A stretch of 64,000 nt of DNA, from positions 11,134-75,133 of the IMG/VR virus record IMGVR_UViG_3300017963_000253; one strand, 5' to 3'. The first letter of the stretch is position 1, and every line of letters begins with the position of its first letter. A program made the translations under genes and the position numbers. Below are positions 10,329 to 59,442 of the stretch, piece by piece. Under the pieces are notes generated by a model. That model saw nothing but the letters and a program-made list of their open reading frames with translations, did not search any database and was not told the origin of the DNA. The stretch comes from a virus.

Positions 10329-10337
10329 GAGGTAGAG

Positions 10338-27482: not shown

Positions 27483-28186
27483 AGTATATCGGGTATATAC
27501 GCGTATCGACGCTAGACCAAGCCCGGACGGGCGTCTCCCTCGCGGACCAGGAGGAGAAGATCCGTCAGTACGTGGCGCTCGCGGACGGGGAACTCGTGGA
27601 CGTTATCCAGGACGGGGGGCGGAGCGGGAAGGACCTCGACCGGGAAGGGGTCCAGGAGGCGTTCTCCCGGGTCCTGAACGGGGAGGCGGACGTCCTAGTG
27701 GTCTACGCCATCGACCGCCTCTCTCGTTCCGCTCTGGACCTCCTGCAGCTGGTCTCGAAGCTTAGGGACGGGAAGCGGGGGTTCGCTTCCGTCCGGGAGC
27801 AGATGGACTCAACTACGCCCCACGGACGGTTCACGATGACGATCCTCGCGGCGGTCGCGGAGATGGAGCGGGAGATGATTCGCTCCCGCTGCCGCGACGC
27901 CTCCGCGCGCTGCGTTCGGGACGGGCGGGTCTGGGGGAAGGTCCCCTTCGGCTACCAGAGGGACCGGGGTGGGAAGCGCCTGATCGAGGACCCCGTCGAG
28001 ATGGAGGTCCTCCGCGGGATCCTGTCTCTCCGGGACGCGGGGTACAGCTACGCGAAGATCGCCGCCCACCTGAACCGTCGCGGTCGGGGACCGAAGATCG
28101 GCGCGCGCTGGTACCCCTCCTCCGTTCGCTCCGTCGTACTGACCCACCAAAAGTACCGCGAGGTTCGTAGCTTACGAGAGGGTTGA
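27479..28186 (+). CDS. serine recombinase (resolvase + recombinase domain)
   Basis: GYIRVST, DGGRSGK, VYAIDRLSR, AEMEREMI, VPFGY. Confidence 0.93.
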   Translation: MKYIGYIRVSTLDQARTGVSLADQEEKIRQYVALADGELVDVIQDGGRSGKDLDREGVQEAFSRVLNGEADVLVVYAIDRLSRSALDLLQLVSKLRDGKRGFASVREQMDSTTPHGRFTMTILAAVAEMEREMIRSRCRDASARCVRDGRVWGKVPFGYQRDRGGKRLIEDPVEMEVLRGILSLRDAGYSYAKIAAHLNRRGRGPKIGARWYPSSVRSVVLTHQKYREVRSLREG

Positions 28187-28258: not shown

Positions 28259-28903
28259 ATGGATAGTCGAGAGCTGGCCCTTCGGGCCTACCGTTCCAAT
28301 CCCTCCAATTCCACCTTCCGGCGCGTCGAGTCGGAGTACCGCGGCTGGCTGACGACGGTTTCCGGAAGCGTCCTCCGGAGGTACCCAGGTTTGACCGGGG
28401 TCCGGGAGGACGTCTTGAACGAGGGCCTCCTGGCCCTCTCCCGGAGCGTCAGGCGGTTTCTCTGGTTCTGCGGGCGCTGCGGAGCGCCGTTCCTCGAGTT
28501 CTCGGACCTCCGCGCTCACGCCGCGGCGGAGCACCGCGTCCGCGGGGAGGTGGAGCTGGTCTCCCTCCGGAAGTTCGCGGAGCAGTCCGCCGGGTACGCC
28601 ATGAAGCGGACCGCGCTCCGGCTCTACCGTCCGGAGGTCCCCAGCGAGTTCTCGGAGCAGGTCCCGGACGAGCGCTGGAGCCGGGACGTCCTAGACGTGG
28701 AGCTGCTGGTCCGGCGCGCGGAGCTTCGGATGAGCCGGGACGCCCTCCACCTCCTCCACCGCGTTCTGGGGACGCCGGAGCCGGATCCCCTCGCCCCGGA
28801 GGAGCCGGGTCTCCCGGAGCTGAGGGACCTCCTCCGGGACCTCCCTCAGGCTCATCTTGGTTATGAGTCCCCGAAGGAGGCGACATGTCGGTACCGGAAC
28901 TAG
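28259..28903 (+). CDS. sigma70-family factor with inserted C2H2 zinc finger
   Basis: Region 2.2-like EDVLNEGLLALSRSVRRF; CGRCGAPFLEFSDLRAHAAAEH; region 2.3/2.4-like SLRKFAEQSAGYAMKR. Confidence 0.7.
   Translation: MDSRELALRAYRSNPSNSTFRRVESEYRGWLTTVSGSVLRRYPGLTGVREDVLNEGLLALSRSVRRFLWFCGRCGAPFLEFSDLRAHAAAEHRVRGEVELVSLRKFAEQSAGYAMKRTALRLYRPEVPSEFSEQVPDERWSRDVLDVELLVRRAELRMSRDALHLLHRVLGTPEPDPLAPEEPGLPELRDLLRDLPQAHLGYESPKEATCRYRN
28853..28868 (+). promoter_or_regulatory. phage promoter motif
   Basis: CATCTTGGTTATGAGT upstream of AGGAGG and the ATG at 28885. Confidence 0.65.
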
Positions 28904-29592
28904 AGGGACCTCGTTTCAAGCAACTGAACCTGAGCACGCTGCGGAAGACGTCCGCGGAGGTCCTGGGCTTCGAGCCCCAGGGTCGGAAGATCCGGGAGGC
29001 TCACGCGGAGGTGATGGCGGAGCTGGACCGCCGGAGGCACGAACTCCCCTACGTCTGCGGGCGGTGCAACTCCTCCTTGGACGGGGAGATGAGCAAGTGC
29101 TGGGCCTGCGGGTCCGTGATCCAGGACGAGGCGGAGGACGCGCCGCGGATGACCACTGAGGAGGTCGAGAGTCGCGCCGGGAAGCTGGGGATTGACCCTG
29201 GGGAGAAGGGGGAGGAGGAACTCCGCGCGGAGGTGGAGGCGGCGGAGAAGCGGAAGCGGAACCGCCGCGGGGACCTCGGGGGGATGGAGGCGGAGCGCCT
29301 GAACGAGCAGTTGACGGAGGCGATGGGGGACGGTTGGCGGAAGGATAGGACAAAGTTGTATATTTCCTATTTTGATCCAAGTGGTCAGAAGAGAATCGGA
29401 GTCTACAATCGTGGGCTTCAAGTACAATTTTCCGTCAATGATGGAGTTTTGGATCACTTCGAAAATTTGGAATTTTTGGACAAGGATGCACGACGCAGAC
29501 GGCACACGGGGCGGACTAACTATATCTATGTTGGGGACGTCTCCCGCGAGGCCTTAGAGGTCGCTCTCTTCGTTCTACGCAAGTACAGCTGA
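28885..29592 (+). CDS. zinc-ribbon-containing hypothetical protein
   Basis: CGRC...CWAC; strong RBS. Confidence 0.7.
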   Translation: MSVPELEGPRFKQLNLSTLRKTSAEVLGFEPQGRKIREAHAEVMAELDRRRHELPYVCGRCNSSLDGEMSKCWACGSVIQDEAEDAPRMTTEEVESRAGKLGIDPGEKGEEELRAEVEAAEKRKRNRRGDLGGMEAERLNEQLTEAMGDGWRKDRTKLYISYFDPSGQKRIGVYNRGLQVQFSVNDGVLDHFENLEFLDKDARRRRHTGRTNYIYVGDVSREALEVALFVLRKYS

Positions 29593-29603: not shown

Positions 29604-30551
29604 ATGAAGCCTGAAGAGACGCTCGTCCTCGGGGCCGGTCCCGTGGGCTTGATTGCGGCGGAGATCCTGGGGGCGCGCTACGTGGTGGGGAAGGATCCCG
29701 GGGGTTCCAAGACCCTTCGCAACCTGGCTCCAACCTACCTCTGGTGGACCCCCTCTGTGGAGCGCTTCCTCCTGGATCTTGGGCTGAATTGGGGATCTCG
29801 CTGGGTTAAGTTTGGGTGGCTTTGCTCGGGTGAGGTTAGGGACGCCCCCTCCGAGGCGGACTTGAAGAGCTATTACCGGCGTAGCCGCGGGGGCGTCTCC
29901 GGGAAAGTACCCTCCTCCGTGGCCTCCTCCGGGAAGCCGGGGGAGATCGAGGTCTCCAGCGTTCCCCTGGAGCAGATAATCGACCTTCTCTTGGAGAGGA
30001 ACCTGATTTACGAGATGGAGGTGGAGTCTATCTTCCACTTGGGAACGGTGATCCGGTTCAATCAATCCCCGACGGTGGAGTTCCCCGCTACTACGTTGGT
30101 CAACACGCTCCCGAGGTCGGTCTTCTGTGAGATGATATTCCCGAAGATGGAGTTCCCACCGGAGGCAAAGGCGGGTTGGAAGACCTTCGTAAGTGGGGAC
30201 GCCTACACTAGTGCGTTGGACCGGGTATGGGAGGAGCGGGAGCTTGACTTCCTCTACGTAGCGGACGAATCGCTCCCGTTCGAGCGCGTGAAGTTCCTGC
30301 ATGATTCCTGGAAGAACGAGAGGTTCGTCTACGAGTTCAACGCGGTGTCAGTCCCGCCGGAATTCCTGGATCTGGTCCATGGGAAGCAGGTTTACTCCGC
30401 GCCGCTGCAGATCTCGGAGGTCTCCACCCGTCCCAGGGTGGAGGAGTTGGGGGGTAGGGTCCGGAACGTCGGGCGGTTGGCGCGGTGGGATCACTCTATC
30501 CGCCTTCACGACGTGATAGAGGAACTCTATCGCTGGAGGGATGTACGATGA
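29604..30551 (+). CDS. FAD-dependent oxidoreductase (UDP-galactopyranose mutase / amine-oxidase fold)
   Basis: VLGAGPVGL, LVNTLP, C-terminal VGRLARW. Confidence 0.75.
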   Translation: MKPEETLVLGAGPVGLIAAEILGARYVVGKDPGGSKTLRNLAPTYLWWTPSVERFLLDLGLNWGSRWVKFGWLCSGEVRDAPSEADLKSYYRRSRGGVSGKVPSSVASSGKPGEIEVSSVPLEQIIDLLLERNLIYEMEVESIFHLGTVIRFNQSPTVEFPATTLVNTLPRSVFCEMIFPKMEFPPEAKAGWKTFVSGDAYTSALDRVWEERELDFLYVADESLPFERVKFLHDSWKNERFVYEFNAVSVPPEFLDLVHGKQVYSAPLQISEVSTRPRVEELGGRVRNVGRLARWDHSIRLHDVIEELYRWRDVR

Positions 30552-31495
30552 AGGACGCGTTGGAGGAGATCTTCGAGACCCAGACCGCGTTCAACCGGAG
30601 GTTCTTCGCGGATCGTGGCTTGGACCTGGCGGAACTCTCCGGAGCGGACCGGGCGCAGTGGACGAAGCAATTCGTCCTCCACGTGGAGGGGGAGCTTCAC
30701 GAGCTACTCCGGGAGACGAACTGGAAGATGCATCGCCTGGAGGGGAAGCGGGTCAACCGGGGGAACGTTCTGGAGGAGTGGACGGACTGCTTCAAGTTCC
30801 TGCTCGGGCTCGCCAACGTCTGGGGGTTCTCCGCCTCCGAGGTCCTGGAGGAGTTCCGCCGGAAGTCCCGGGTGGTGGACTACCGTTACGGGATGGAGCA
30901 GCGTCTCCGGGCGATCTCTCCGGGGAGTCCGGTGGTGGCGGTGGACATCGACGGGGTTCTGAACGACTACCCAGGTTGCTTCCTCCGCTGGGTTTCCCCC
31001 CCAGCTGAAGAACCGTTCGAGACGCTTGCGGCGCTCCGGGAGAAGGTGGGTCCCAAGCGGTACCGGGAGATCAAGGACGAGTACCGGAAGAGCGGGGCGA
31101 AGCGGGAGCAGGGGGTTCGACCCGGTGCGCGGGAGATGCTCAACGGACTCCGCGCCGCCGGTTACTCCGTGGTCCTACTATCCAAGCGTCCCTACTGGCG
31201 GTTCTACCGGATCTACGCGGATACGCTGGAGTGGCTGGAGCGGAACGGGCTCCGCTGCGACGCGGTCCTCTTCCACCGGGAGAAGCACCGGAAGATCCTG
31301 GAGGACTTCCCTAACCTTATCGCGATGGTGGAGGACGACCCCGCGGTGGCGCGGGAGATCCTCTCCATCGGGGTGGAGGTCTTCTTGGTAGAGGGGGAGC
31401 TGAACGTAGGGGCGGAGGTACCCGGGGCAAACAGAATTTCCAACGTCGCGGACGTCGTGACGGAACTGGAGGAGATTGGGTATGAGTCACGATAG
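30548..31495 (+). CDS. dimeric dUTPase/MazG-like NTP pyrophosphatase fused to HAD 5'-nucleotidase
   Basis: ELHELLRETNWKMH, LEEWTDCFKF; DIDGVL, TLEWL, MVEDDP. Confidence 0.85.
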   Translation: MKDALEEIFETQTAFNRRFFADRGLDLAELSGADRAQWTKQFVLHVEGELHELLRETNWKMHRLEGKRVNRGNVLEEWTDCFKFLLGLANVWGFSASEVLEEFRRKSRVVDYRYGMEQRLRAISPGSPVVAVDIDGVLNDYPGCFLRWVSPPAEEPFETLAALREKVGPKRYREIKDEYRKSGAKREQGVRPGAREMLNGLRAAGYSVVLLSKRPYWRFYRIYADTLEWLERNGLRCDAVLFHREKHRKILEDFPNLIAMVEDDPAVAREILSIGVEVFLVEGELNVGAEVPGANRISNVADVVTELEEIGYESR

Positions 31496-32603
31496 AGTAG
31501 AGGAGATCCGGAAGTTGCGACGCCTGATGGGAACCGCTCCAGAGGCGGAGCCTGAGTTCGAGACGAAGTTCTACCGCGGGGTAGAGGGGATCCGCGTGAA
31601 GCTGGTAGATGGACCTCGGAACCCCTACCGGGCGATGTACGCGATGGGGGTCTCTACCTGGGGGCATATTCACTCTTTAGCTACTGACCGTTGGGAGGAT
31701 ACACCGCCGGAGGCCCGGGAGGCGGTAGTCCGGGCGGTCCTAGGGTTTAACGCCCTCCCGCTAGCGATGGAGGCCCCGAAGTTTACGTTCGAGGTCTATA
31801 ACCTTACGCGGTGGAGCTTCGATCAGATCGCCCGCGCGCGGATCGGGGCGGTCTTCGCTTCCCTCGGGACGCGGGATAACAACCATTTGGGGATCCCCTT
31901 CCGGATGCACGAGGCGACTTGGAGGAACGAGTCGAAGCGAGGTCTCTTTGTGGGCAACGCCAAGAACGCCAAGGACGCGTACCGGACGTTGGTGGAGAGT
32001 GGGAGGGGGAGTTGGCAGGAGGCGCGGACGTTCCTCCCGATCTCGGTGGTCCATCGCTTCACGATGTCGATCAACTTCCTTGCCCTCCGGGGGATGTGCG
32101 CCCGGAGGATGACCTTCTCGGAGGCGGAGGACACTGTTGCGGTGGCGTGGCTCCTTCGAGACCGTTTGATGAAGGCGGACGCCTACCCGCTTCTCGCCGC
32201 CCATCTTCGACCCGCTTGTGACGGCGCGGGGACCTGCCGGTATCACAAGGCTCACACGATTTCAGAGGCCTTTGGGTGTCTTTTCAAGAGCTGTGGTCGA
32301 CACCCGGTGAAGAGCGCCCCCGGGAACCCGGATTTCGATTACGAGTATGCGGACTTTAACGTCAGTTGTTCGGACCGAAAGACGATTCAGGATCAGCTGC
32401 AGATTTCGATCCCGGAGCGGACCATGGATCCTGACAAGGTGGAACTTACTTCCCGCGACCGTTTCCTCTTAGGATTTCAGGCTCAGAATGAGGAGGAGTT
32501 TGAAGATTGGAGGTGGTACGCGCAGGCGGAGAGAGGGGTGGATGCAAACCCGTTCCCCCTCCCGGATTCCGGGGCTGCAGTTGAACCGGTGGACCTCCCG
32601 TGA
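31482..32603 (+). CDS. divergent ThyX-family flavin enzyme
   Basis: FTFEVYNLTRWSFDQIARAR, QEARTFLP, C-terminal Cys cluster; canonical active-site motifs altered. Confidence 0.8.
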   Translation: MSHDRVEEIRKLRRLMGTAPEAEPEFETKFYRGVEGIRVKLVDGPRNPYRAMYAMGVSTWGHIHSLATDRWEDTPPEAREAVVRAVLGFNALPLAMEAPKFTFEVYNLTRWSFDQIARARIGAVFASLGTRDNNHLGIPFRMHEATWRNESKRGLFVGNAKNAKDAYRTLVESGRGSWQEARTFLPISVVHRFTMSINFLALRGMCARRMTFSEAEDTVAVAWLLRDRLMKADAYPLLAAHLRPACDGAGTCRYHKAHTISEAFGCLFKSCGRHPVKSAPGNPDFDYEYADFNVSCSDRKTIQDQLQISIPERTMDPDKVELTSRDRFLLGFQAQNEEEFEDWRWYAQAERGVDANPFPLPDSGAAVEPVDLP

Positions 32604-33136
32604 TCCGCGCGCTGGAGGGGGTGAACTTCGTCGGGAAAAGTACGGCTACTAATCTTCTCTCTGTGGAGTTTGGTTTTCCTGTTTATTCGGATCCTGGAAG
32701 GCATGGATTGTTTGAAGATTGGTTAGTTCCGTTTTCTCCGCGTGAATGGCAGGTTCAAGGGACTCAAAATGCATTAGCTAGTACAGTGTTTTCCAACTGG
32801 GTAGACGTAATTTTGGATCGCTGGATCCTCTCGAATTTGGTTCACGATGAGGAGCGGGGATTGAAAATCCCGGACCGCGTTATCTGGAAAATTTTGGAGT
32901 TGACTGATAATGCGAGGGTGTACCTCCTACATGCGGATCTTTCGGTGGTGTTGGAGCGAGCGGAGGAGCGTGGTGTGGTAGTAACTGATTCGCTCCGGGA
33001 TACGATATTCAAGCGGGCAGAAGCCTTTCTTCGTTGGGCCACCGTTTTGGATTCTTACTATGGGGTCGAAGTTTATCTCGTTAACGCAAACTGGAGTAGT
33101 GGAGAGGTTTTCGATGCGATATATCGTAACTGGTAG
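32600..33136 (+). CDS. thymidylate kinase-like dNMP kinase
   Basis: LEGVNFVGKST P-loop, ILDRWILSNLV. Confidence 0.85.
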   Translation: MIRALEGVNFVGKSTATNLLSVEFGFPVYSDPGRHGLFEDWLVPFSPREWQVQGTQNALASTVFSNWVDVILDRWILSNLVHDEERGLKIPDRVIWKILELTDNARVYLLHADLSVVLERAEERGVVVTDSLRDTIFKRAEAFLRWATVLDSYYGVEVYLVNANWSSGEVFDAIYRNW

Positions 33137-34121
33137 CAGTGGGATGCTGGGTCATGTCTTGGACGAGACCCTTCGGTCCCTGGGTCACGAGCGGTTGATC
33201 CCGAGCGGTCGGAACTGGAAGAGCCCTTCCACCGGGGAGATAGAGCCGGACTTCCGGGACCCTGTATATCTTCGTTGGCTGGAGGGGGCGAACGTGGACG
33301 TCTTCTTCCACGCCGGGGCGTTGGTGGGGACGACGCGATGTGAGGCGCACGCGGAGGATGCCTGGAGCTGCAACGTCGAGGCGGTCCGGAGGATCGCGGA
33401 TATCCTCTCCCGGCGACGGATCTACACCGTCTTCTACGCCACTGCTGCGGAGATGGAGCCGGGGGAGTATGGGTTGGACCGGCCTATCGACGTGGGACGG
33501 ACCCCCCGGAACCCGCTTACCCGTTACGGGATTACGAAGTTGGCGGGGCGGGAGTTGATGGAGGTCCTTTTCCGGGAGCGTGGTGTGGAGGAACTCCTTC
33601 TCCAGGTCTATCCTAGCTTTGGCTTCGGAGGGGCGCGGGACGGGAACTCCTGTGTGGCCGACCTTCTGAAGTGTGCCCTCGGGGTTTATGACCGCAGACC
33701 CTTCCTCCCGCTCGCCCCGGAGAACATCAAGGAGGTCACACCGCACTCCTACATCGCGGAACTTTCCGTCCGCGCCGCGGAGCGACGTCTCTCTGGGAAG
33801 ATTCCTATCGCGTCTGGGGTCTGGACCCGTTACGCGGAGATCGTGGAGATGGTCGAGGATGTCACCGGGGAGAAGTTGGACCCGGAGTGGCGTGCGGACC
33901 TGGACTACAAGGGGGACTTCTTACATGTACGGGAGGACGTCTTCTCCTTGGCAGAGGATCTGGGGGTTCCGGTCCTGACGCGGGTGGAGATCAAAGCGGC
34001 TCTCGTGGATGAGATGAACGGGATCCTGAACGCGGAGGGTGCCGGGGTGATGGCGAATCACGAGTGGCGGTTCGCGGAGAAGCTTGTGGAGGCGTTCCCG
34101 GGTTGGGAGGGACGTAGATGA
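33114..34121 (+). CDS. NAD-dependent epimerase/reductase (extended SDR, RmlD-like)
   Basis: VTGSSGMLG, FHAGA, YGITK. Confidence 0.85.
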   Translation: MRYIVTGSSGMLGHVLDETLRSLGHERLIPSGRNWKSPSTGEIEPDFRDPVYLRWLEGANVDVFFHAGALVGTTRCEAHAEDAWSCNVEAVRRIADILSRRRIYTVFYATAAEMEPGEYGLDRPIDVGRTPRNPLTRYGITKLAGRELMEVLFRERGVEELLLQVYPSFGFGGARDGNSCVADLLKCALGVYDRRPFLPLAPENIKEVTPHSYIAELSVRAAERRLSGKIPIASGVWTRYAEIVEMVEDVTGEKLDPEWRADLDYKGDFLHVREDVFSLAEDLGVPVLTRVEIKAALVDEMNGILNAEGAGVMANHEWRFAEKLVEAFPGWEGRR

Positions 34122-34801
34122 TTAGATATTTGAATAAATTAGTTGAAGTATTGACTAATTTGGATAACGAAGAGCGTATTGAGGCTTTGAATTTGGTAAA
34201 GACGGAGCTTCATAAAATTTCTCCTTTCAAGGCGGAGCCTGTGGATTGTGTGCTTTGGGAGCGTACTTCTCGTGTAATTGCTAACGATTACAATCCTAAT
34301 GCTGTTGCTCCTCCGGAAATGGAGTTACTTCGGATTTCGATAGAGTCGGATGGATTCACCCAACCTGTTGTGACGGATTTCAGTGACGAGTCTGAGGTGT
34401 TTGTGGTGGTGGATGGATTTCACCGTAATCGAGTGGCTCGAGAGTGTGAATCTGTGGTGGATAAGTTGGGTGGTTACCTTCCGATAGTTCAGATACGTGC
34501 TGATCAGAAGGGGCGTTCAGATAGAATTGCTTCGACGATTCGTCACAATCGCGCAAGGGGTAAGCATCAAATCGCAAAGATGTCTGATATTGTGATTGAA
34601 TTGAAGCGGAGAAATTGGTCTGACAAGAAGATAGGTCGTGAACTTGGGATGGATCCTGATGAGGTGTTGCGATTGGCTCAGATTACTGGGTTAGCAGAAG
34701 CGTTTCGGGACAAGGAGTTCACTCGGGCCTGGGAGGCAGATTTGAAGTTGGATGACGAGTTGATCGAGGGATTGGTCGAAGAGGTCGACTTGGATGAGTA
34801 G
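34118..34801 (+). CDS. ibrB: ParB-like nuclease-domain protein (IbrB/YbdM family)
   Basis: SPFKAEPVDCVLW, ANDYNPNAVAPPEMELL, VDGFHR, STIRHNRARGKH. Confidence 0.9.
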   Translation: MIRYLNKLVEVLTNLDNEERIEALNLVKTELHKISPFKAEPVDCVLWERTSRVIANDYNPNAVAPPEMELLRISIESDGFTQPVVTDFSDESEVFVVVDGFHRNRVARECESVVDKLGGYLPIVQIRADQKGRSDRIASTIRHNRARGKHQIAKMSDIVIELKRRNWSDKKIGRELGMDPDEVLRLAQITGLAEAFRDKEFTRAWEADLKLDDELIEGLVEEVDLDE

Positions 34802-35210
34802 GTTGGAAACGATAGATTTTGAGAGAGTTCAACCTGGTAGAGTTTACTTTCATTACTTGGATTTGGAGGAGTATCACGCCGGGTTTTGGAAGTCTGTTTA
34901 CAATCGGGATATTAAGGCGCGCTTGACTGCTACTTCGGTTAAGATTTTGCGGGATCGGGATATTTTTAGTGGTGCAGTTCAACGTGTGATAAAGGAGTGG
35001 CCAAACTCTTGTCTAGCGGAATTTACTGCTCCTGGAAATCACAGGGCTTGGTTGGGTCAGGCTGCGTGCTGTCTCGTTGCTGGTGTTCCGGAGAACCTGA
35101 CTCGGTTAGCGTGGTGGAAGTTAACTGAGGTCCAAAGAATCGCCGCTAACGATATTGCGGAGATTGCTATTCGAGATTGGAGGATAAGACGTGTTGAAAC
35201 GAAGACTTGA
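34794..35210 (+). CDS. hypothetical protein within the ibrB-ibrA module
   Basis: Overlaps both neighbours; WPNSC...RAWLGQAACC motif. Confidence 0.8.
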   Translation: MSRLETIDFERVQPGRVYFHYLDLEEYHAGFWKSVYNRDIKARLTATSVKILRDRDIFSGAVQRVIKEWPNSCLAEFTAPGNHRAWLGQAACCLVAGVPENLTRLAWWKLTEVQRIAANDIAEIAIRDWRIRRVETKT

Positions 35211-36423
35211 GATCAACGTCTTGGAGGCAGCTCGGGAACGGATAGCGCGGGTTTTCGACGATTTTGAGAGAATTTATGTGGCGTTTAGTGGGGGTAAGGA
35301 CTCAACTGTGATGATGCACTTGGCGTGTGAAGAGGCACGCCGTCGGGAGTGTAGAGTTGGGATCTTAATGGTGGATTTGGAAGGTTACTTTGAAATCACG
35401 GTGAAACACTGCGTTGAAATGTTTGAAATGTACGCGGATGTGATAGAGCCGTTTTGGATTTGTCTTCCGATTCACCTTCGTAATGCAGTGAGTGTGTTTG
35501 AGCCGTTTTGGGTTTGTTGGGATCCTAAAGCAGAAGGGGCTTGGGTTCGACGACCTCCAAAGGAAGCGATTGTTGATTCAGGGTACTTTCCTTTTTTCCG
35601 TGAAGGTATGGAGTTTGAGGAATTTGTGCCGCTATTTGGGGATTGGTACGCAGATGGGAAGCGGTGTGCGTGTCTTGTGGGTATCCGCACGGACGAGAGT
35701 TTGAATCGCTTTCGAACAATTGCGATTTCCCAAAAGGAGAGATTTGAGGGTCTTTCTTGGACGACGAAGATCACCAAGGATCTCTATAACGTATACCCTA
35801 TTTACGATTGGTCTGTTGAAGATATTTGGGTATATCACGCGAAGTTTGGAGATAAGCCTCACAATCGGCTGTACGATTTGATGCACCAAGCGGGTATGAC
35901 GCCTTCCCAGATGCGAATTTGTCAACCTTATGGAGACGATCAAAGGCGTAACTTGTGGCTATTTCACATTATCGAACCTAAGACTTGGGCCAGGATTGTT
36001 GCACGTGTGAATGGTGCTAATGGGGGAGCACTTTATATTCAGGAGTGGGGAAATATTAATGGTTATCGAAAGATAACTAAACCTGTTGGGCATACTTGGA
36101 GAAGTTTCTCAGAACTCCTCGTGGCTTCGATGCCAGAAAAGTCAAAGATTCACTATCGTAACAAGATCCTTCTTTTTGAAAAGTGGTGGACAGAGCGTGG
36201 TTACCCTGAAGGGATTCCTGATGAGGCGGATCCACGAATGGAGGCTAATCGCAAAGCTCCAAGTTGGCGGAGAGTATGTAAATCGTTACTTAGAAACGAT
36301 TATTGGTGTAAGGGACTTGGATTTAGTCAGCAGAAGAGTGCTGCCTACAAGGCTTACTTGGAGTTGATGAAGCGGCGGAAGAAATCTTGGGGTGTCAGTG
36401 ATGTTAAGTTGGGGTTTGTATGA
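35191..36423 (+). CDS. ibrA: PAPS-reductase-family PP-loop protein with DUF3440 (IbrA/YbdN family)
   Basis: AFSGGKDS, VGIRTDESLNR, YPIYDW, MRICQPYG, PSWRRVCKSLLRNDYWCKGLGF. Confidence 0.9.
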   Translation: MLKRRLEINVLEAARERIARVFDDFERIYVAFSGGKDSTVMMHLACEEARRRECRVGILMVDLEGYFEITVKHCVEMFEMYADVIEPFWICLPIHLRNAVSVFEPFWVCWDPKAEGAWVRRPPKEAIVDSGYFPFFREGMEFEEFVPLFGDWYADGKRCACLVGIRTDESLNRFRTIAISQKERFEGLSWTTKITKDLYNVYPIYDWSVEDIWVYHAKFGDKPHNRLYDLMHQAGMTPSQMRICQPYGDDQRRNLWLFHIIEPKTWARIVARVNGANGGALYIQEWGNINGYRKITKPVGHTWRSFSELLVASMPEKSKIHYRNKILLFEKWWTERGYPEGIPDEADPRMEANRKAPSWRRVCKSLLRNDYWCKGLGFSQQKSAAYKAYLELMKRRKKSWGVSDVKLGFV

Positions 36424-39347
36424 GAAGTCCACGTGTTAAGAGACTTCAAGAGAACGGGTTTCGATCTGGAGCTTCTCTTGTAGCTGATGCGGACACTCAG
36501 GCGTTTGCGGAGGATCAAGTAGAGCACCGCGCGCAGTACCAGCAGACCGCTGCGTCCGTGGAGGAGGTCAAGGACAAGCGGAGCGTTGAGGACCTCCAGG
36601 ACGCTACGGACTTCGACGACTTGAAGAAGGCGGCTTGGACCTTCAATCCGGGGACGGAGTACTACCACGGGTGGTCGGAGGGAAACGACATAATCTTACT
36701 TCGGAGGGATCCGGAGACGGGGCGGCGGATCCGGGAGATTCACCCGTTTGAGTGGTACTTCTACGTCACTCGGGAGGACTATGAGAGTGTACCCAAGGAT
36801 TCCTGGGATTGGCTCTGTAGTTGTGGAACGCTCGCGGAGAAGGTGGTTCCGGACGAGAACTATCCTGATTTGTACTATCGGGTTTACGTAAAGAACCCTG
36901 TTCCGAAGTTGGATAAGAAGAGGATCTTTTCGAATGTCGGAGATCCGGATCGTGGTGCGAATTGGGCGATTCCTTTCTATCGAGGTGAGAGTTCAAGATC
37001 TATCAGATGGCCACGGGACCGGGAGAAGTGGACGAGAGTTCACAAAGTGATCAATTGGTGTGAGCGAAAGGGAGTGACACCGTTGGAGGCGGATCTTACG
37101 CCGAAGCAGCGGTTTCTCACGGATTACGATATAACGATCACTCCGAAATTTCGGATAGGGTTCTTCGATATTGAGACGGATGACTCTGTTGGAGGGTTCG
37201 ATAAGAAGGAGCAGTGTCGAATTCTCTCAATAGCTTGGGAGGGGGACCGCTTCGAGGAAGATCCAACTGATTGTGGATTCTTGTTGCTACAGGAGGAGAC
37301 GGACGAGGCTGAGAAGAAGTTGCTTTTGGAGTTCAAGCGTAGTTGCGTCAATAAATACGACGTATTGTCGGCTTGGAATGGGACTGGGTTTGACTTTCCT
37401 GTTCTATTCTATCGGTTTTGGAAGCACAAAATTCGAATCGACTGGCGTTATCACCTCTTTGCAGATCCGCTTCCTATCTTCAAGCGGCACTACGTTAGAG
37501 CCGGAGGGGATGCGATTTCCTACTCCCTTGATTCTATCGGGGAGAAGGTTCTGAAGATGAATAAGATCGACTGGAGGACGATCTTTCGGAAACGTCACCC
37601 TGGGGTGGTCCCGAAGTTCATCAACCTCTACCGGCACGACCCGGAGCTTTTGGAGGAGTACAACCGTCTGGACGCCACAATCCTCCGGAAGCTGGAGGCG
37701 TTCACCGGGTTCGTGGCGATCGAGCAGATCTTCTGCCGGATTGCGAACGGGTTCCCGAACGATTTTCAGATTTCGACTAAGGTGGACCAGCTCTTACTGA
37801 AGAAGGGGTTCAAGGAGGGGCATCACTTCCCGACGAGATACTGGTCTCCTGGTAAGCCGGAGAAGTACGAAGGAGCTTACGTATTTCCGCCGGTTCGCGG
37901 GATGCACCGGAACGTTGCCGCGTTTGACTTCAAGAGCCTGTACCCCTCGATGATCTCCAGTTTCAATATCTCCCCGGAGACAATCGTGAAGGAGGAGAAC
38001 AGGGCGGATTTTGAGGAGAAGGACCTTTGCAGGATCCCGGAACTTGATTTGGAGCGGGAGGACGGGGACGGGGAGATAGAGGTCTTGCAGAAGGGTGGTT
38101 CCACCTTCAGGTTGGACAAGCAGGGGTACCTCTCGCAGATGTTTGAGCGTACTTTGATGAGGAGGAAGAAGTACCAGGACCTTCAGAAGGAGCGTTTGAA
38201 GGTCACCGGGACGACTCAGGACGATCTCTTCCTCCTCTACTATCGCTTGGCTTACTCCTTCAAGCGGTTGGGGTTATCCTTCTACGGAGATATCGGGAAC
38301 TCCAGGTCCAGGTTCTACGACACTGAGGTGGCGGAGGCGATCACTCTCTCTGGTCAGTTCTTTATCAAGGAAACAGCTAAATACGCCCAAGAGTGCGGAA
38401 TGATTCCACTTTATGGGGACACCGATTCCATCTACGTCCAGTTAGCACCTACTGAACAGGAGTGGGATTCGCAGGAGGAGCGGATCGCGGAGTTGAACGA
38501 AATTGGGGAACGCTTCGTGGAGTATTGTCAGGAGCGTTATCTGAAGATCCTCAAGGAGCACAATTGCAACCTGGATTGGAACCTTATCTTCCTGGAGTTC
38601 GAGGACACCTACGACCGGATTTTCTTCATCGTCAAGAAGCGGTACGCCGGGAGGATGCTCTCCCACAAGGGGGGGAAGACGGACCACGTGGAGGTCAAGG
38701 GTCTCGAGGTGATGCGGAGCGATTGCTCCGGGAAAACGCGGGCGCTTCAGCAAGCGGTGTTGGACGGAATTCTCATGACGGGGATGACCGCGGAGCAGCT
38801 GGAGCGGGAACTGATAGAGCCGGAGTTCAACAGGTGCGTCTCCGGTGAACTTACCGTGGACGAGGTCTGCATCGGGAAGGGGATCTCCAAGGAGCCGGAG
38901 AAGTACAAGACGACCCCGCTCCACGTGGCTTTGGCACAGGAGATCAAGGACCACGGGCGGGAGTTCTTCGTTGGGATGAAGGTGGAGTACGTGGTCACCG
39001 GGGTGAAGCCGAAGCTCCAGGGCGTGACGCGAGAGGAGTACGAGGACTCGAACGGGGAGTTGGTTTACGACCCGGAGTACTACTGGGATCGGGTGGTCTA
39101 CCCCGCCTCGATGAGGATCCTGGAGGTCTGTTACCCGGAGAAGGACTGGACTCGCTGGAAGGTGGCGGACAATCGGAGGCGGCGGAAATTGGTGGACCGC
39201 TACAAGATCTGGTTAGCTGACCCGAAGCGGGTAGAGAAGGCGCTCCTCCAGATCCGGGAGAATAAGCGTGGACTCCTAGGACCGCCGGAACTGGCGGAAC
39301 TCCGGACCGCGCCCCGCGTCCGCATCTTGGATAGGAGTGAGGGATGA
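36420..39347 (+). CDS. family B DNA polymerase with 3'-5' exonuclease
   Basis: FDIET, WNGTGFDF, FDFKSLYPS, KRLGLSFYG, YGDTDS, KKRY, VKGLE. Confidence 0.95.
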   Translation: MRSPRVKRLQENGFRSGASLVADADTQAFAEDQVEHRAQYQQTAASVEEVKDKRSVEDLQDATDFDDLKKAAWTFNPGTEYYHGWSEGNDIILLRRDPETGRRIREIHPFEWYFYVTREDYESVPKDSWDWLCSCGTLAEKVVPDENYPDLYYRVYVKNPVPKLDKKRIFSNVGDPDRGANWAIPFYRGESSRSIRWPRDREKWTRVHKVINWCERKGVTPLEADLTPKQRFLTDYDITITPKFRIGFFDIETDDSVGGFDKKEQCRILSIAWEGDRFEEDPTDCGFLLLQEETDEAEKKLLLEFKRSCVNKYDVLSAWNGTGFDFPVLFYRFWKHKIRIDWRYHLFADPLPIFKRHYVRAGGDAISYSLDSIGEKVLKMNKIDWRTIFRKRHPGVVPKFINLYRHDPELLEEYNRLDATILRKLEAFTGFVAIEQIFCRIANGFPNDFQISTKVDQLLLKKGFKEGHHFPTRYWSPGKPEKYEGAYVFPPVRGMHRNVAAFDFKSLYPSMISSFNISPETIVKEENRADFEEKDLCRIPELDLEREDGDGEIEVLQKGGSTFRLDKQGYLSQMFERTLMRRKKYQDLQKERLKVTGTTQDDLFLLYYRLAYSFKRLGLSFYGDIGNSRSRFYDTEVAEAITLSGQFFIKETAKYAQECGMIPLYGDTDSIYVQLAPTEQEWDSQEERIAELNEIGERFVEYCQERYLKILKEHNCNLDWNLIFLEFEDTYDRIFFIVKKRYAGRMLSHKGGKTDHVEVKGLEVMRSDCSGKTRALQQAVLDGILMTGMTAEQLERELIEPEFNRCVSGELTVDEVCIGKGISKEPEKYKTTPLHVALAQEIKDHGREFFVGMKVEYVVTGVKPKLQGVTREEYEDSNGELVYDPEYYWDRVVYPASMRILEVCYPEKDWTRWKVADNRRRRKLVDRYKIWLADPKRVEKALLQIRENKRGLLGPPELAELRTAPRVRILDRSEG
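39323..39338 (+). promoter_or_regulatory. phage promoter motif
   Basis: CATCTTGGATAGGAGT, starting 21 nt before the ATG at 39344. Confidence 0.65.
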
Positions 39348-54421: not shown

Positions 54422-57097
54422 TTGTCGGATTCCACCGTAGTGATAAAGGGTGGTCAGGTTACGTGCAAAAAGTCGGACTCTGGCGATCCAGACTCCGCGT
54501 TCATTCGGAGGTACTTCACCGCGGAGGGAGAGAGTCTAGAGGACTCTCTCTGTCTCAGCACGAAGTACGTTACGAGAACCGCTTCGATCACGGGGGCGGA
54601 CGGGGAGGAGGTCTTCCGGCAGGAGAACGTGGAGGTCCCGGAGGGTTGGAGCCAGCTCGCCACCAACGTGGTCGCCTCGAAGTACTTCCGCGGAAAGCCG
54701 GGGGAGGAGAACCGGGAGTCCTCCGTTAAGGGGATGATCTCCCGGGTAGTAAAGCAGATCTCCACCTGGGGGACGGAGGGCGGATACTTTACTTATCAGG
54801 AGGAGAAGTTGACCTTCGAGGCGGAGATGGCGCACGTCCTCCTGAGGCAGCGGGCTACGTTCAACTCCCCGGTCTGGTTCAACGTGGGAGTGGAGGCGGA
54901 GCCGCAGTGTTCCGCCTGCTTCATCAACTCCGTGGACGACACCCTCTCCTCTATCCTGAAGCTGGCGCGGACGGAGGGGATGATCTTTAAGTACGGCTCC
55001 GGAGCCGGGGTCAACCTCTCCCCCCTCCGCGGGGCGAAGGAGGGTCTCTCCGGAGGGGGGAGTGCCTCCGGTCCGGTCTCATTCATGAAGGGGTTCGATG
55101 CGTTCGCCGGGGTGATCAAGAGCGGGGGGAAGACGCGCCGCGCCGCGAAGCTGATCTGCCTTGACGTGGACCACCCGGACGTCCGGGAGTTCGTCACCTG
55201 CAAGCTGGCGGAGGAGGAGAAGGCGCGGGCGCTCCGGGAGGCGGGGTACTCCGGGGGGATAGAGGGGGATGCCTACGCGTCGGTCTTCTTTCAGAACGCT
55301 AACCACTCCGTTCGGGTCTCCGACGCGTTCATGCACGCCGCTGTATCCGGGTCTTACTGGGACCTAAAGTCCCGCCGGGACGGGGAGAACGTGGAGACGG
55401 TGAACGCCTCCGAACTTCTGGACCTCATTGCGGAGACCGCCTGGGCTTGCGGGGACCCGGGGATTCAGTTCGACGAAGCGGTGAACTTCTGGCACACCTG
55501 CCCGGGGCGGGGGAAGATCAACGCCTCGAACCCCTGTGGGGAGTTCGTCTTCCTAGACAACTCCGCCTGCAACCTGGCCTCCCTGAACCTGGTGAAGTTC
55601 GAGGACTCGAACGGGTACTTCGACTCCGCGTCGTTCGAGCACGTGGTCCGGTTGATGACCGTGGCTCAGGAGATCCTGGTGGACAACGCGCGGTACCCCA
55701 CGCCGGAGATCGAGTCTAACTCCAAGCGCTTCCGTCCGCTCGGGCTCGGGTACGCCAACCTCGGGGCGCTCCTGATGCGGCGGGCTCTTCCTTACGACTC
55801 CGAGGAGGCGCGGAACTACGCTGCGGGGATCACCGCTTTGATGACCGCTACCGCCTACCACGCCAGCGCGCGGCTGGCGCGCCGGAAGGGACCGTTTACG
55901 GGTTACGACGCGCGGGAGATGAAGCCGGTCCTCCTGAAGCACCTGGACGCGATTGGGAAGCATCGGAGCGTACCCGGGGCTTGGGGAGAACTCCTAAAGC
56001 GCGCGGAGGAGACGTTCTCCCGTGCGCTCCTGATCGGGGACAACTACGGGTTCCGGAACGCTCAGGTCACGCTCCTCGCACCGACGGGGACGATCGCGTT
56101 CATGATGGACTGCGAGACGACCGGGGTAGAGCCGGACCTCTCCCTCCGGAAGCGGAAGTCCCTCGTCGGGGGCGGGGAGTTGATCTACTCAAACGGATCC
56201 CTGGTGCGTGCGTTGGACGTTCTGGGGTACGATTCGACGGAGGTGGAACTCATCTTGGAGCACCTCGGGGAGCGTGGGACCCTAGTGGATTCGGAGGTCC
56301 TACCGGAGCACCTTCCGGTCTTCGACTGCGCGCTACCCGACGCGGTGGGTCGCTCTATCCCGTACCAAGGGCACCTGAAGATGCTCGCCGCGGTCCAGCC
56401 CTTCCTCTCCGGTGCGATCTCCAAGACGGTGAACCTCCCAGTAGACACTAAGGTGGAGGACGTACGCGCCGTCTTCGTCGAAGCTTGGGAGATGGGGCTA
56501 AAGTCCATTACCGTCTACCGGGACGGTTCGAAGGACGCGCAACCCGTGGAAGCGGTGGGGAAGACCTGGGAGGCTCCCCCACCCGTGAAGTTCTCCGGTC
56601 GGGAGAAGCTCCCGGAGACGCGCGCCTCCCTGACTCACAAGATCGACATCTCCGGGCACGAGGGGTACGTGATCGCCGGGATGTACCCGGACGGGCGACT
56701 CGGGGAGGTCTTCGTGGTGATGGCCAAGTCCGGGAGTACGGTCTCCGGGCTCCTGGACGCCTGGGCGACGGCGGTCTCCATCGGGATCCAGTACGGGGTT
56801 CCCTACGCGGTCCTCCGCGAGAAGTTCTCGAAGACCCGGTTCGAGCCCGCGGGGTACTCCAACCGCGGGCTGGTGACCTCCATCCTCGACTACCTCTTCG
56901 ACTGGCTGGAGGAGTGGTTCCCCGGGGGGAAGCGGAAGTTCTCCCGCGCGGAGGACGGTCCCCCTCGGGAGTTAACGGAGGCGGCGCGGACGCTCGGGGA
57001 CTCCGGTCCCCCCTGCCCGGACTGCGGCTCGATCATGGAGCCCTCCGGAGCCTGTCACCGCTGTCCCGTCTGCGGGTCCTCCTCCGGTTGCGGCTGA
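54422..57097 (+). CDS. nrdJ: class II (adenosylcobalamin-dependent) ribonucleotide reductase
   Basis: FNSPVWFN, QCSACFI, ASNPCGE, APTGTI, GAISKTVN, TSCPD-like domain, C-terminal Zn ribbon. Confidence 0.95.
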   Translation: MSDSTVVIKGGQVTCKKSDSGDPDSAFIRRYFTAEGESLEDSLCLSTKYVTRTASITGADGEEVFRQENVEVPEGWSQLATNVVASKYFRGKPGEENRESSVKGMISRVVKQISTWGTEGGYFTYQEEKLTFEAEMAHVLLRQRATFNSPVWFNVGVEAEPQCSACFINSVDDTLSSILKLARTEGMIFKYGSGAGVNLSPLRGAKEGLSGGGSASGPVSFMKGFDAFAGVIKSGGKTRRAAKLICLDVDHPDVREFVTCKLAEEEKARALREAGYSGGIEGDAYASVFFQNANHSVRVSDAFMHAAVSGSYWDLKSRRDGENVETVNASELLDLIAETAWACGDPGIQFDEAVNFWHTCPGRGKINASNPCGEFVFLDNSACNLASLNLVKFEDSNGYFDSASFEHVVRLMTVAQEILVDNARYPTPEIESNSKRFRPLGLGYANLGALLMRRALPYDSEEARNYAAGITALMTATAYHASARLARRKGPFTGYDAREMKPVLLKHLDAIGKHRSVPGAWGELLKRAEETFSRALLIGDNYGFRNAQVTLLAPTGTIAFMMDCETTGVEPDLSLRKRKSLVGGGELIYSNGSLVRALDVLGYDSTEVELILEHLGERGTLVDSEVLPEHLPVFDCALPDAVGRSIPYQGHLKMLAAVQPFLSGAISKTVNLPVDTKVEDVRAVFVEAWEMGLKSITVYRDGSKDAQPVEAVGKTWEAPPPVKFSGREKLPETRASLTHKIDISGHEGYVIAGMYPDGRLGEVFVVMAKSGSTVSGLLDAWATAVSIGIQYGVPYAVLREKFSKTRFEPAGYSNRGLVTSILDYLFDWLEEWFPGGKRKFSRAEDGPPRELTEAARTLGDSGPPCPDCGSIMEPSGACHRCPVCGSSSGCG

Positions 57098-58026: not shown

Positions 58027-58034
58027 CTTTGGAG

Positions 58035-58593: not shown

Positions 58594-59442
58594 ATGAAGG
58601 ACGCGGAGAAGATAGTGCGGGCGGTCGCGGAGCTGGACGCGGCGCTGGACGGACTGGACAACGCGGAGGTCTACTACGCCCTCGCTCAGTCGAAGCGGGT
58701 CCCCCCGGGGCGGGGGATGTTCGCACAGCAGAAGGCGGAGTTGGAGGCGTTTGAGGACGGGCGATTGATCGGAGCGGTGGATGTGAAAAATGAAACGGGG
58801 ATGCACCCACTCGTAGATGACGTAGTTGATACTCATAATACCTCCGTCGTTAGGATACCTCGGATCCCACGCCTCCCCTGGGACCAGTTCTTCATGCTCC
58901 ACGCGCACCTAGCGGCGACCCGCTCCACCTGCGACCGGGGGCCGGAACTCTACTTCGACCCGGGGCGGCGCGGGGTTGGGGCGGTCATCGTCCGGGAGAA
59001 GCGGATCGTCGCCGGGGGGTACAACGGGTCTCCGCCGGGGCAACCTCATTGCTACGCCCTGAAGTGCGACTGTTGCGGGGTAGAGTTTCCGGAGAGTCAC
59101 ATCGAGAGAGCGGGTTTCGTAGATGGGCAGAGATGTCCCGCTTGCGCGCCCGGGAAGCTTTTCGGTGGGCACCTCCTTCGGGACGGTCACTGCGTGAGGA
59201 CGCTCCACGCGGAGGAGAACGCGCTCCTCCAGTGCGCGCTGGACGGGGTCTCCCCGGAAGGAGCTACCGTCTACACGACCGCCTCCCCCTGCTGGGACTG
59301 CGCGAAGCGCCTCGTACGGGTCGGGGTCTCCCGCCTCGTCTACTCAGCGGAGTACGGTTCCCGCTACGGACTCTCTGAGGACGCCGAAGGTCTCCTGGAG
59401 GATGCCGGGGTGGAGATGGAGCACCTGGAGGTCTCCCTTTGA
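58594..59442 (+). CDS. dCMP deaminase with N-terminal extension and Zn-ribbon insert
   Basis: WDQFFM..A...ATRSTC, GYNGSP, HAEENA, SPCWDC. Confidence 0.9.
   Translation: MKDAEKIVRAVAELDAALDGLDNAEVYYALAQSKRVPPGRGMFAQQKAELEAFEDGRLIGAVDVKNETGMHPLVDDVVDTHNTSVVRIPRIPRLPWDQFFMLHAHLAATRSTCDRGPELYFDPGRRGVGAVIVREKRIVAGGYNGSPPGQPHCYALKCDCCGVEFPESHIERAGFVDGQRCPACAPGKLFGGHLLRDGHCVRTLHAEENALLQCALDGVSPEGATVYTTASPCWDCAKRLVRVGVSRLVYSAEYGSRYGLSEDAEGLLEDAGVEMEHLEVSL

Follow-up and report, generated by a model that had tools for sequence, protein, structure and literature searches.

Five overlapping genes that run into a DNA polymerase gene in an uncultured, high-GC phage raise the question of whether this phage makes a non-canonical nucleotide for its own DNA or assembles an ordinary supply of dTMP. 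The genes occupy positions 29604-34121 of the window, by which we mean the whole 64,000-nucleotide stretch of a metagenomic contig that was analysed. All five are co-oriented on the + strand, every one overlaps the next, and their GC3 values lie between 0.74 and 0.82. The first, g1 (29604..30551), encodes a small FAD-type flavoprotein of 315 aa with a UGM/protoporphyrinogen-oxidase/amine-oxidase fold. Its end is overlapped through an ATGA by the start of g2 (30548..31495), in which an N-terminal MazG-like NTP pyrophosphatase is fused to a probable C-terminal HAD/NT5C-type phosphatase. They are followed by g3 (31482..32603), a rewired ThyX-like flavoenzyme of 373 aa with a Cys-rich C-terminal extension; by g4 (32600..33136), a putative, thymidylate-kinase-like dNMP kinase of 178 aa that overlaps the preceding gene through a GTGA; and by g5 (33114..34121, with an alternative start at 33060), an extended SDR of the nucleotide-sugar epimerase/reductase type with 335 aa. 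The chain continues gaplessly on the same strand through g6 (34118-34801), g7 (34794-35210) and g8 (35191-36423) into a family B DNA polymerase gene (PolB, 36420..39347; Pfam DNA_pol_B 2.6e-45). An earlier sequence-only reading had described five such genes continuing via ibrBA into the polymerase. Coordinates and overlaps bear this out, and the genes and folds it had proposed (UGM-like, RmlD-like, altered ThyX, dNMP kinase, dUTPase/HAD) are all upheld. Also on the + strand, and named by that reading as a possible source of dUMP, are genes for a ribonucleotide reductase (RNR) large subunit (54422..57097; PF02867, 1.9e-131) and a dCMP deaminase (58594..59442; PF00383, 2.9e-20).

Conservation of the neighbouring genes bears on the extent of the module. 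Immediately before the flavoprotein gene lies a + strand ORF of 235 aa (28885..29592; hmmsearch 2e-96 to its cluster, c31), whose homologues directly precede the flavoprotein gene in loci L002-L006 as well as in the distant loci L013 and L016; the L013 member gives weak zinc-ribbon matches. Further upstream on the same strand, a 214-aa ORF of the c53 cluster (28259..28903; hmmsearch 2e-62 to homologues) has counterparts upstream of the cassette in L003-L006, and whether it belongs to the module is uncertain. Neither the c53 ORF nor the window copy of the c31 ORF matched a family in Pfam and PHROG searches. Downstream, the three + strand genes between g5 and the polymerase form a low-GC island (34118..36423; GC about 47%, GC3 0.44-0.46). 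They encode an IbrB-like ParB-domain protein (g6), a 138-aa ORF and an IbrA-like PAPS-reductase/DUF3440 protein (g8; 46-58% identical to phage IbrA proteins), with matches to PHROG 2159 and 2302. No homologue of the island genes was found in any of 69 related loci, and the island is probably a later insertion outside the conserved module. The polymerase behind it is 66-72% identical to those that follow the cassette in L002-L005.

At the centre of the question is g3, which shares with ThyX (TM0449, Rv2754c; PF02511) a fold, a Pfam match and the dUMP-binding arginines but departs from it at the active site. It passes the Pfam Thy1 threshold (37.5 bits against a cut-off of 24.8; E 2.8e-9) and superimposes on T. 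maritima ThyX (1o26) with a Foldseek TM of 0.73. In the alignment, its R110, R118, R131, R182 and R209, all invariant, correspond to M. tuberculosis ThyX R87, R95, R107, R172 and R199, which contact dUMP (PMC6514825); R120 is also retained. By contrast, the RHR-x7-S signature is absent and is replaced by R118-A119-R120 and G129, so that M. tuberculosis H96 of the RHR becomes A119 and S105 becomes G129. Among 27 aligned homologues the middle residue of the RxR is variable and the Gly at the motif-Ser position is invariant. M. tuberculosis Tyr108, the lid above uracil C5 and flavin N5 (PMC6514825), is replaced by Asp132, which is likewise invariant among homologues. The equivalent of M. tuberculosis R190 is an Ala, and that of T. 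maritima His53 is Ala98. This histidine reportedly stacks on folate in the T. maritima enzyme. The Cys-rich extension, 130-150 aa long in proteins of this type, has no counterpart in ThyX, and its C246, C252, H255 and C271 are conserved. The ThyX-like proteins form their own well-supported clade (SH-aLRT 99). Some of their genes carry inteins at the active-site region, a further trait in common with ThyX, for some genes of which inteins at that place are known. The family, with 77 cluster representatives at E<=1e-30, is essentially virus-only: a search of 185,579 species genomes gave 5 matches, each of them on a MAG contig.

The neighbourhood search that the sequence-only reading had called for reveals a constant core. 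It covered 37 viral loci, selected by the presence of a ThyX-like gene, with 10 kb on both sides and some near-duplicates among them. Each of the 37 has genes for a g1-type flavoprotein and a MazG-HAD fusion no more than 10 kb away from the ThyX-like gene; the kinase is found in 31/37, a polymerase gene in 33/37 and the SDR in 24/37. The SDR is missing from L004 and L005, the second-closest relatives, and is optional even among closest relatives. Gene order differs between loci, ThyX-like identity drops to about 30%, and the adjoining polymerase comes from three unrelated families (PolB, DnaE and PolA). What fills the slot among the core genes depends on lineage: an SDR, an aldo-keto reductase plus a radical SAM protein, a SAM methyltransferase, a PLP (PALP) enzyme or a mini ThyA-like protein. 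Biosynthetic clusters show just such a change of tailoring enzymes in one slot. Phage nucleotide-metabolism genes often adjoin replication genes, and a place next to the polymerase gene therefore says little by itself.

The partners of g3 were assigned from profiles, motifs and models. The N-terminal half of g2 passes Pfam dUTPase_2 (PF08761; 28.3 bits against a cut-off of 22.9; 2.6e-6), and its acidic metal-binding motifs EGELHE and EEWTD (ExxE/ExxD) are conserved in 51 homologues. Its C-terminal half matches NT5C/HAD at 21 bits, under the cut-off of 24.8 (3.4e-4), and has HAD motif I DIDGV (DxDG), present in the 51 homologues, and a conserved EDD; among the PHROG matches of g2, 415 and 173, PHROG 415 (PNK phosphatase type) outscores NT5C. 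A P-loop (GVNFVGKST) and a DRW motif characterize g4, which matches PHROG 761 (thymidylate kinase, 6e-10) and reaches 20.2 bits with Pfam Thymidylate_kin, under the cut-off of 27 (5e-4); it is homologous to the kin147 family of the related loci (hmmsearch 7e-6). The SDR g5 passes Pfam Epimerase (51.1 bits, 1.6e-13) and RmlD_sub_bind (32.7 bits, 5e-8). Its TGxxGxxG and catalytic YxxxK are conserved in 34 homologues, and its nearest solved structures are MoeE5 and dTDP-4-dehydrorhamnose reductase.

The flavoprotein g1 had no match in a Pfam search. It carries a GxGxxG at residues 10-15 and a C-terminal GRxAxWxH, and its cluster assignments in the Atlas are virus-only. When its AF2 model (pLDDT 88) was ranked by Foldseek and VIA-align, UDP-galactopyranose mutases (UGM, Glf) came first (VIA Z 19.3-20.7 over about 300 residues), followed by protoporphyrinogen oxidase (Z 18.7), with amine oxidases and renalase also close. 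The predicted likeness to UGM extends to a related C-terminal GR-x-x-x-aromatic motif. However, g1 is 12-15% identical in sequence to the UGMs it matches, is 50-190 residues shorter than these and much shorter than eukaryotic ones, and is accompanied in the genome by a nucleotide hydrolase rather than by the enzymes of a sugar-nucleotide pathway. In UGM the reduced flavin N5 serves as a nucleophile, as it likewise does in ThyX.

Among known systems, the cassette follows the part logic of the hmU phages (SPO1/SP8/phi-e and the first steps of PhiW-14, the latter with dCMP deaminase, dTTPase and hydroxymethylase; PMC5977210) and of T4 cytosine replacement (PMC5977210, PMC7824862): dCMP deaminase, dNTP pyrophosphatase, a C5 synthase at the dNMP level, a kinase dedicated to the dNMP and a polymerase encoded by the phage. 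Whereas those pathways use ThyA-family hydroxymethylases, the present cassette has a ThyX-fold enzyme, and it goes beyond them in building in a UGM-like flavoprotein, an SDR and a putative HAD phosphatase. The likeness to SP-15 proposed by the sequence-only reading found no backing in homology. The SP-15 group (SP-15, YerA41 and Carin-5), with 5-(dihydroxypentyl)uracil-type T made at the dNTP level, is a conceptual precedent only for the sugar-derived C5 chain, added ahead of replication, which that reading had envisaged: the ThyX-like profile had no match in SP-15, YerA41, RP13, Carin-5 or phiLo, and the flavoprotein profile matched none of this set except phiLo, where a partial g1-like match was obtained. 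SP-15 itself has two Thy1-family proteins, one of them proposed as a hydroxymethylase (PMC5977210, PMC12686479).

A better experimental anchor is provided by Pbunavirus F8 and 14-1, in which distant relatives of the core trio lie beside the polymerase gene (profile E 1e-12 to 1e-5). In F8, gp059 is a ThyX that lacks the His and has an extension with Cys residues; its tree branch is long and poorly placed, and its signature, RTR and T-R-A/D, differs from that of g3. The g1-like flavoprotein of F8 is gp065, in which the motif reads GRFATW. F8 gp057 is a HAD and MazG-like fusion with the domain order reversed relative to g2, and their fusion in either order speaks for a joint task of the two domains. 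In the F8/14-1 version of the module we recognised neither an SDR nor a kinase. In F8/14-1 virion DNA about 25% of thymidines are a TG-specific, sugar-bearing derivative of 362/390 Da (Yee et al. 2025, PMC12191111), to which no genes have been assigned (PMC12191111). By our own arithmetic, the masses given in PMC12191111 correspond to 5-hmdU joined to a tetritol or a pentose with loss of water.

Might the module, then, act in part after replication? It could supply 5-hydroxymethyl-dUTP only, or the Cys-tailed ThyX-like enzyme could act on DNA; a donor sugar from g1 and g5 would then be attached to hmU in DNA by a further transferase. The best folds of g1 and g5 and the F8/14-1 masses agree with such a scheme, the TG specificity of that mark points to a DNA-level step, and every characterised thymidine hypermodification begins from 5-hmdU in DNA (PMC8989533). 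A mark confined to TG is unexplained by a nucleotide-pool enzyme and counts against a pathway that tailors nucleotides. Some marine relatives moreover have GT1 glycosyltransferase genes at a distance of a few kb. Among the about 45 window proteins scanned, all of them encoded beyond the structural half (1-21000), we nevertheless found no glycosyltransferase, as the sequence-only reading had it, and no 5-hmU DNA kinase, aGPT-Pplase-type or other DNA-level transferase. In addition, g1 with its 315 aa does not reach the length of its UGM matches and is constantly partnered by the MazG-HAD fusion instead of a sugar-activating enzyme, and the dedicated dNMP kinase argues that the first product, at least, is a nucleotide. 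We regard a post-replicative mark as unlikely. A product not meant for DNA, which would reshape pools or act as a nucleoside or nucleotide analogue in host takeover or counter-defence, is very unlikely. It would resemble the work of PolB of polyoxin biosynthesis (4p5b), a ThyX homologue that methylates UMP and is among the structural matches of g3. With Asp in place of the Tyr, sugar recognition might differ; a MazG-HAD fusion can take a nucleotide down to a nucleoside; and the family is virus-only and variable. Against this, the module consistently adjoins genes for the replicative polymerase, for dCMP deaminase and dUTPase and for RNR, its thymidylate-kinase-like kinase points to a dNTP, and no export or resistance functions were seen.

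Ordinary dTMP supply is, in our judgement, a rather unlikely account. Here g3 would be a divergent working synthase, the MazG half of g2 a dimeric-type dUTPase and g4 a dTMP kinase, with g1 as a flavin/pyridine-nucleotide redox partner offsetting the lost histidines of g3 and with g5 and the HAD domain as accessory housekeeping enzymes. The retained arginines and the Pfam matches to Thy1, dUTPase_2 and Thymidylate_kin are as expected, a standard route to dTTP is made complete by dCMP deaminase and RNR, and the dUTPase reading of the fusion fits ordinary dTMP synthesis and counts against a tailoring role. In sister phages (G001, G003) a canonical thyX follows the dCMP deaminase gene; this syntenic site is empty in the present phage, no second thymidylate synthase was found on the window contig, and the DTR-complete relative G002 also has the ThyX-like gene alone. 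In these phages the enzyme could simply be the thymidylate synthase. However, a canonical ThyX or ThyA accompanies the ThyX-like gene in the genomes of 8/20 larger relatives and 5/9 complete ones, including three of the four closest relatives and sisters with ThyX-like proteins 60-66% identical to g3. The canonical ThyX of relatives scores 163 bits and has its EH, RHR and SQRF motifs intact. Coexistence in five of the nine complete genomes makes a plain dTMP role for the ThyX-like protein unlikely. Ordinary supply also has to contend with replacement of the folate-stacking His, RHR His, motif Ser and Tyr lid, two of them by invariant residues, and it leaves the nucleotidase-pyrophosphatase fusion and the changing slot enzymes unexplained.

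For the tailoring pathway that we favour, we infer the following chemical steps, substrate and fate in DNA. RNR and dCMP deaminase would lead to dUMP, and the MazG-like half of g2 would convert a dNTP (dUTP and/or dTTP) to its monophosphate. Bound through the kept arginines of g3, dUMP would receive a carbon unit at C5 by flavin-N5 chemistry; nothing in the window points to a carbon donor. Because the folate-stacking His is replaced by Ala and the Tyr lid by an invariant Asp, the exocyclic intermediate may escape simple reduction to a methyl group and be captured by water, yielding 5-hydroxymethyl-dUMP, or by another group. The substituent could then be tailored, or a competing or intermediate phosphate removed, by g1 and the HAD half of g2, with g5 taking part in this lineage. 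Phosphorylation of the modified dNMP by g4 would be followed by completion of the dNTP by a host NDP kinase and its incorporation by PolB. Co-occurrence of the core across distant phages, variable tailoring genes and coexisting ThyX/ThyA support the proposal of a dedicated tailoring pathway coupled to its own polymerase, as the sequence-only reading had envisaged, except that the SDR is not a fixed part of it. Pre-replicative base replacement by the cassette is plausible, and we see an even chance that the cassette is a nucleotide-tailoring pathway whose product, a non-canonical C5-modified deoxyuridylate, would replace some or all of the thymidine in the phage DNA by way of the phage polymerase.

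ORF analysis bore out the five co-oriented, mutually overlapping genes that the sequence-only reading had placed at 29604-34121, and we found that they run without a gap, through three further genes, into a family B polymerase gene (PolB). The first of the five (29604-30551), on the plus strand, has no Pfam or PHROG match. Its product carries a GxGxxG motif and a C-terminal GRxAxWxH motif, and its AF2 model (pLDDT 88) gave UDP-galactopyranose mutases (UGM) as top matches (VIA Z 19.3-20.7), followed by protoporphyrinogen oxidase (Z 18.7) and then amine oxidases and renalase. On the same strand lie a dUTPase_2/MazG-like pyrophosphatase fused to a HAD/NT5C-like phosphatase (30548-31495), with the catalytic motifs of both domains conserved; a ThyX-fold protein (31482-32603); a thymidylate-kinase-like P-loop kinase (32600-33136); and an extended SDR with TGxxGxxG and YxxxK motifs (33114-34121). 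A phmmer search of the ThyX-like protein and the MazG-HAD fusion against PDB sequences matched nothing, and complex prediction for the UGM-fold flavoprotein and the ThyX-like protein scored 0.00, giving no verdict either way. The dCMP deaminase and RNR that had been listed as a possible source of dUMP are both present, downstream of the cassette. Upstream, a serine recombinase with Resolvase and Recombinase domains (27269-28186) is kept in the closest relatives, as are two family-less ORFs directly 5' of the cassette (28259-29592). The ORF cluster that directly precedes the flavoprotein gene (c31) also does so in L013 and L016, which are distant loci.

The active site of the ThyX-like protein is rewired. 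In M. tuberculosis ThyX, five arginines hold dUMP, a Tyr keeps solvent away from uracil C5 and flavin N5, and R190 contacts FAD (PMC6514825). Alignment of the ThyX-like family profile to this enzyme revealed that the five arginines are retained and invariant. The His of the RHR motif is gone (Ala in the window protein, variable elsewhere in the family), the motif Ser has become an invariant Gly, the Tyr lid an invariant Asp, and the R190 equivalent is lost. A further loss is the counterpart of T. maritima His53, a residue that stacks on folate. The family has gained an extension of 130-150 residues, with Cys246, Cys252, His255 and Cys271 conserved.

Searches for this family recovered 77 cluster representatives (50% identity clusters) at E<=1e-30 among 1.84 billion, and 429 such clusters at E<=1e-10; among 185,579 species genomes, only five MAG contigs carried it. 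A quick maximum-likelihood tree placed the window protein within a 59-row clade (SH-aLRT 99) separate from the canonical ThyX clade, and only this clade is supported. A G-R-D signature was dropped as a family definition, as it required 14 changes on the quick tree and did not mark one clade. Searches by tblastn with the window protein and a low-GC relative returned canonical ThyX only, at <31% identity. In the literature we found no described function for a His-less ThyX or for the trio of ThyX-like protein, flavoprotein and MazG-HAD fusion, and no paper describing the family or the trio. Some database homologues contain inteins (PF14890, PF07591) placed near the RxR motif, and in the marine loci L031-L064 the ThyX-like gene (~10001-11460) appears as two overlapping ORFs or with a ~160-aa insertion.

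To examine gene linkage, ORFs were clustered across 69 related viral loci, and counts were taken from the 37 with 10 kb on both sides of the ThyX-like gene, several of which are near-duplicates. Both the MazG-HAD fusion and the flavoprotein (34 long forms and three short ones of 253 aa) occur within 10 kb of the ThyX-like gene in 37/37 loci. With some near-duplicates included, a polymerase gene is found in 33 of the 37, the kinase in 31, a mini ThyA-like protein of 160-170 aa in 26 and the SDR in 24. Gene order varies, and the adjacent polymerase belongs to one of three unrelated families: PolB, DnaE (often with an N-terminal UDG domain) or PolA. A slot between the core genes is filled according to lineage by the SDR, an aldo-keto reductase plus radical SAM/SPASM enzyme, a SAM methyltransferase or a PALP-type PLP enzyme. 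Since the SDR is present in loci L002 and L003 and missing from L004 and L005, it is a lineage-variable tailoring step and not part of the core.

A complete 111-kb relative carries an aldo-keto reductase, a DUF5651 protein and a radical SAM/SPASM enzyme, and no SDR, between the kinase and ThyX-like genes (L013:7297-9899). The mini ThyA-like gene lies inside the module in 35 related loci (e.g., L007:5208-5687 and L032:5348-5863) and is not in the window. Its Pfam Thymidylat_synt match spans positions 112-209 only; the protein has a conserved Cys and, at the position of ThyA's uracil-specifying Asn, an Asp like that of dCMP hydroxymethylases. It is possibly a further C5 enzyme, one that acts on cytosine. 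Adjacent DnaE polymerases (e.g., L007:6132-9932) bear an N-terminal UDG-superfamily domain, and a family-4-like UDG is a separate gene inside the module in 11 loci (e.g., L023:6101-6661). UDG-fused polymerases have reportedly been tied to T-modified phage genomes in a 2026 paper (PMC13697223).

Next, we compared the module with cultured phages. Pbunavirus comprises therapeutic Pseudomonas phages; END nucleases sense their sugar-bearing thymidine. Gp059 of Pbunavirus F8 and its 14-1 equivalent match the ThyX-like profile (E ~1e-12 to 1e-14), with an RTR motif and a Cys-bearing extension; gp065 matches the flavoprotein profile and has a GRFATW motif; and gp057 is a HAD and MazG-like fusion with the domain order reversed relative to that of the window. 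All three adjoin the polymerase gene. About a quarter of F8 and 14-1 thymidines are derivatives of 362 and 390 Da (Yee et al. 2025; PMC12191111). The authors explain these masses by a tetrose sugar alcohol and a cyclic aldopentose adduct, place the derivatives at TG only and assign no genes. By our own arithmetic, the 362 Da nucleoside of F8 has the mass of 5-(tetrahydroxypentyl)-dU. Similar sets also occur in Streptomyces phage Wentworth and Microbacterium phage RikSengupta. Neither the ThyX-like nor the flavoprotein profile matched SP-15, YerA41, RP13 or Carin-5, and phiLo gave a partial flavoprotein-like match only. The proposed analogy with SP-15 thus found no homology behind it and is one of chemistry alone.

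We consider the chances about even that the cassette encodes a nucleotide-level pathway, in which the ThyX-like enzyme alkylates dUMP at C5, tailoring enzymes finish the substituent and the kinase opens a triphosphate route for PolB. Bound dUMP would be alkylated through flavin-N5 chemistry. With neither the lid Tyr nor the folate-site His left, and with an invariant Asp facing the site, the intermediate would not end up reduced to methyl. The substituent would then be finished by the flavoprotein, the HAD domain and a lineage-specific enzyme (the SDR in the window), after which the kinase would begin the route to the triphosphate; the simplest product would be 5-hydroxymethyl-dUMP. A more elaborate version, which we regard as improbable, dispenses with methylene-tetrahydrofolate and yields a 5-(polyhydroxyalkyl)-deoxyuridine nucleotide for incorporation by the phage polymerase. 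By reduced-flavin N5 iminium chemistry, the ThyX-like protein and the flavoprotein would couple dUMP, at C5, to an aldose or its phosphate through the carbonyl carbon of the sugar. The terminal phosphate would be cleaved off by the HAD domain, and the final chain would be set by the SDR or, in other lineages, by aldo-keto reductase/radical SAM, methyltransferase or PLP enzymes. Reasons to entertain this version are the N5-iminium chemistry that ThyX and UGM share, the masses measured in Pbunavirus and the tailoring enzymes of reductase type.

Could the ThyX-like enzyme simply supply dTMP? Among 20 larger relatives, canonical ThyX is also encoded in seven (130-163 bits) and full ThyA in one, and five of the nine relatives estimated complete have such a second thymidylate synthase. 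The canonical ThyX of the sister genomes G001 and G003 has intact EH, RHR and SQRF motifs; its gene lies, with 1-3 kb of other genes, between those for dCMP deaminase and a FEN-like exonuclease. That close relatives carry both enzymes speaks for a role of the rewired one other than dTMP synthesis. The dCMP deaminase and exonuclease genes of the window overlap at 59439-59442, so canonical thyX is missing at the syntenic site, and the ThyX-like gene is the sole thymidylate-synthase-type copy both here and in the complete genome G002. Ordinary dTMP supply therefore stays alive, as a rather unlikely reading. Modification at the DNA level, with the UGM-fold flavoprotein and the SDR acting as sugar-nucleotide enzymes, seems unlikely to us as well. 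That the product is not for DNA at all appears highly improbable, in a module so regularly found near a polymerase gene.

An island (34118-36423) separates the cassette from the polymerase gene and encodes an IbrB-like ParB-domain protein, a 138-aa ORF of unknown function and an IbrA-like PAPS-reductase/DUF3440 protein. Its GC content is 44-47% against 64% for the genome, and none of the 69 related loci has a counterpart. We read it as a later, seemingly recent horizontal insertion. The 64-kb window comes from an IMG/VR virus contig of 75 kb (~74% complete), with nearly all genes on the plus strand. A look-up of sequencing runs listed two DNA data sets, one from sediment and one from seawater, as possible sources of the contig, and none of RNA. 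Although its polymerase has haloviruses as best cultured matches, a haloarchaeal-virus origin was ruled out, as the proteins are not acidic and Amidase_2 lysin, DnaB and RuvC are encoded. The host is a bacterium, given the Amidase_2 lysin, DnaB helicase, IstB-like loader, RecA-like and RuvC-like proteins and N6/N4 DNA methylase. The methyltransferase gene (46857-47714) indicates that the phage DNA is probably methylated too. Just upstream of the dCMP deaminase gene lies an Ogg/HhH-type DNA glycosylase-like protein (58029-58583; Pfam Ogg-HhH 6e-10), which may be relevant given that END nucleases sense hypermodified bases with HhH/EndoIII-like domains. A second, short SDR/epimerase-like ORF (51925-52599; 224 aa), matched in its N-terminal Rossmann part only, may be a truncated or distinct NAD-binding protein. 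A promoter/terminator scan of 26-42 kb gave nothing beyond shuffled expectation, and none of 50,697 phage records was matched by the cassette in a blastn search.

We class the module as a candidate for phage pre-replicative pyrimidine replacement. To our knowledge, all characterised modified-pyrimidine routes in phage DNA begin with a ThyA-family enzyme. If the proposed pathway is true, the module would hold the first ThyX-fold synthase devoted to making something other than thymine. With it come a virus-only flavoprotein of UGM fold, a fused pyrophosphatase-phosphatase and lineage-specific tailoring enzymes. As distant relatives reside in Pbunavirus, the module makes the biosynthesis of sugar-bearing thymidine testable in cultured phages. 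It bears on metagenomics, restriction evasion and sequencing bias, and could yield new enzymes for modified-DNA production. Were the polyhydroxyalkyl version true, it would represent a new enzymatic C-C bond-forming path to hypermodified DNA bases across hundreds of uncultured phages.
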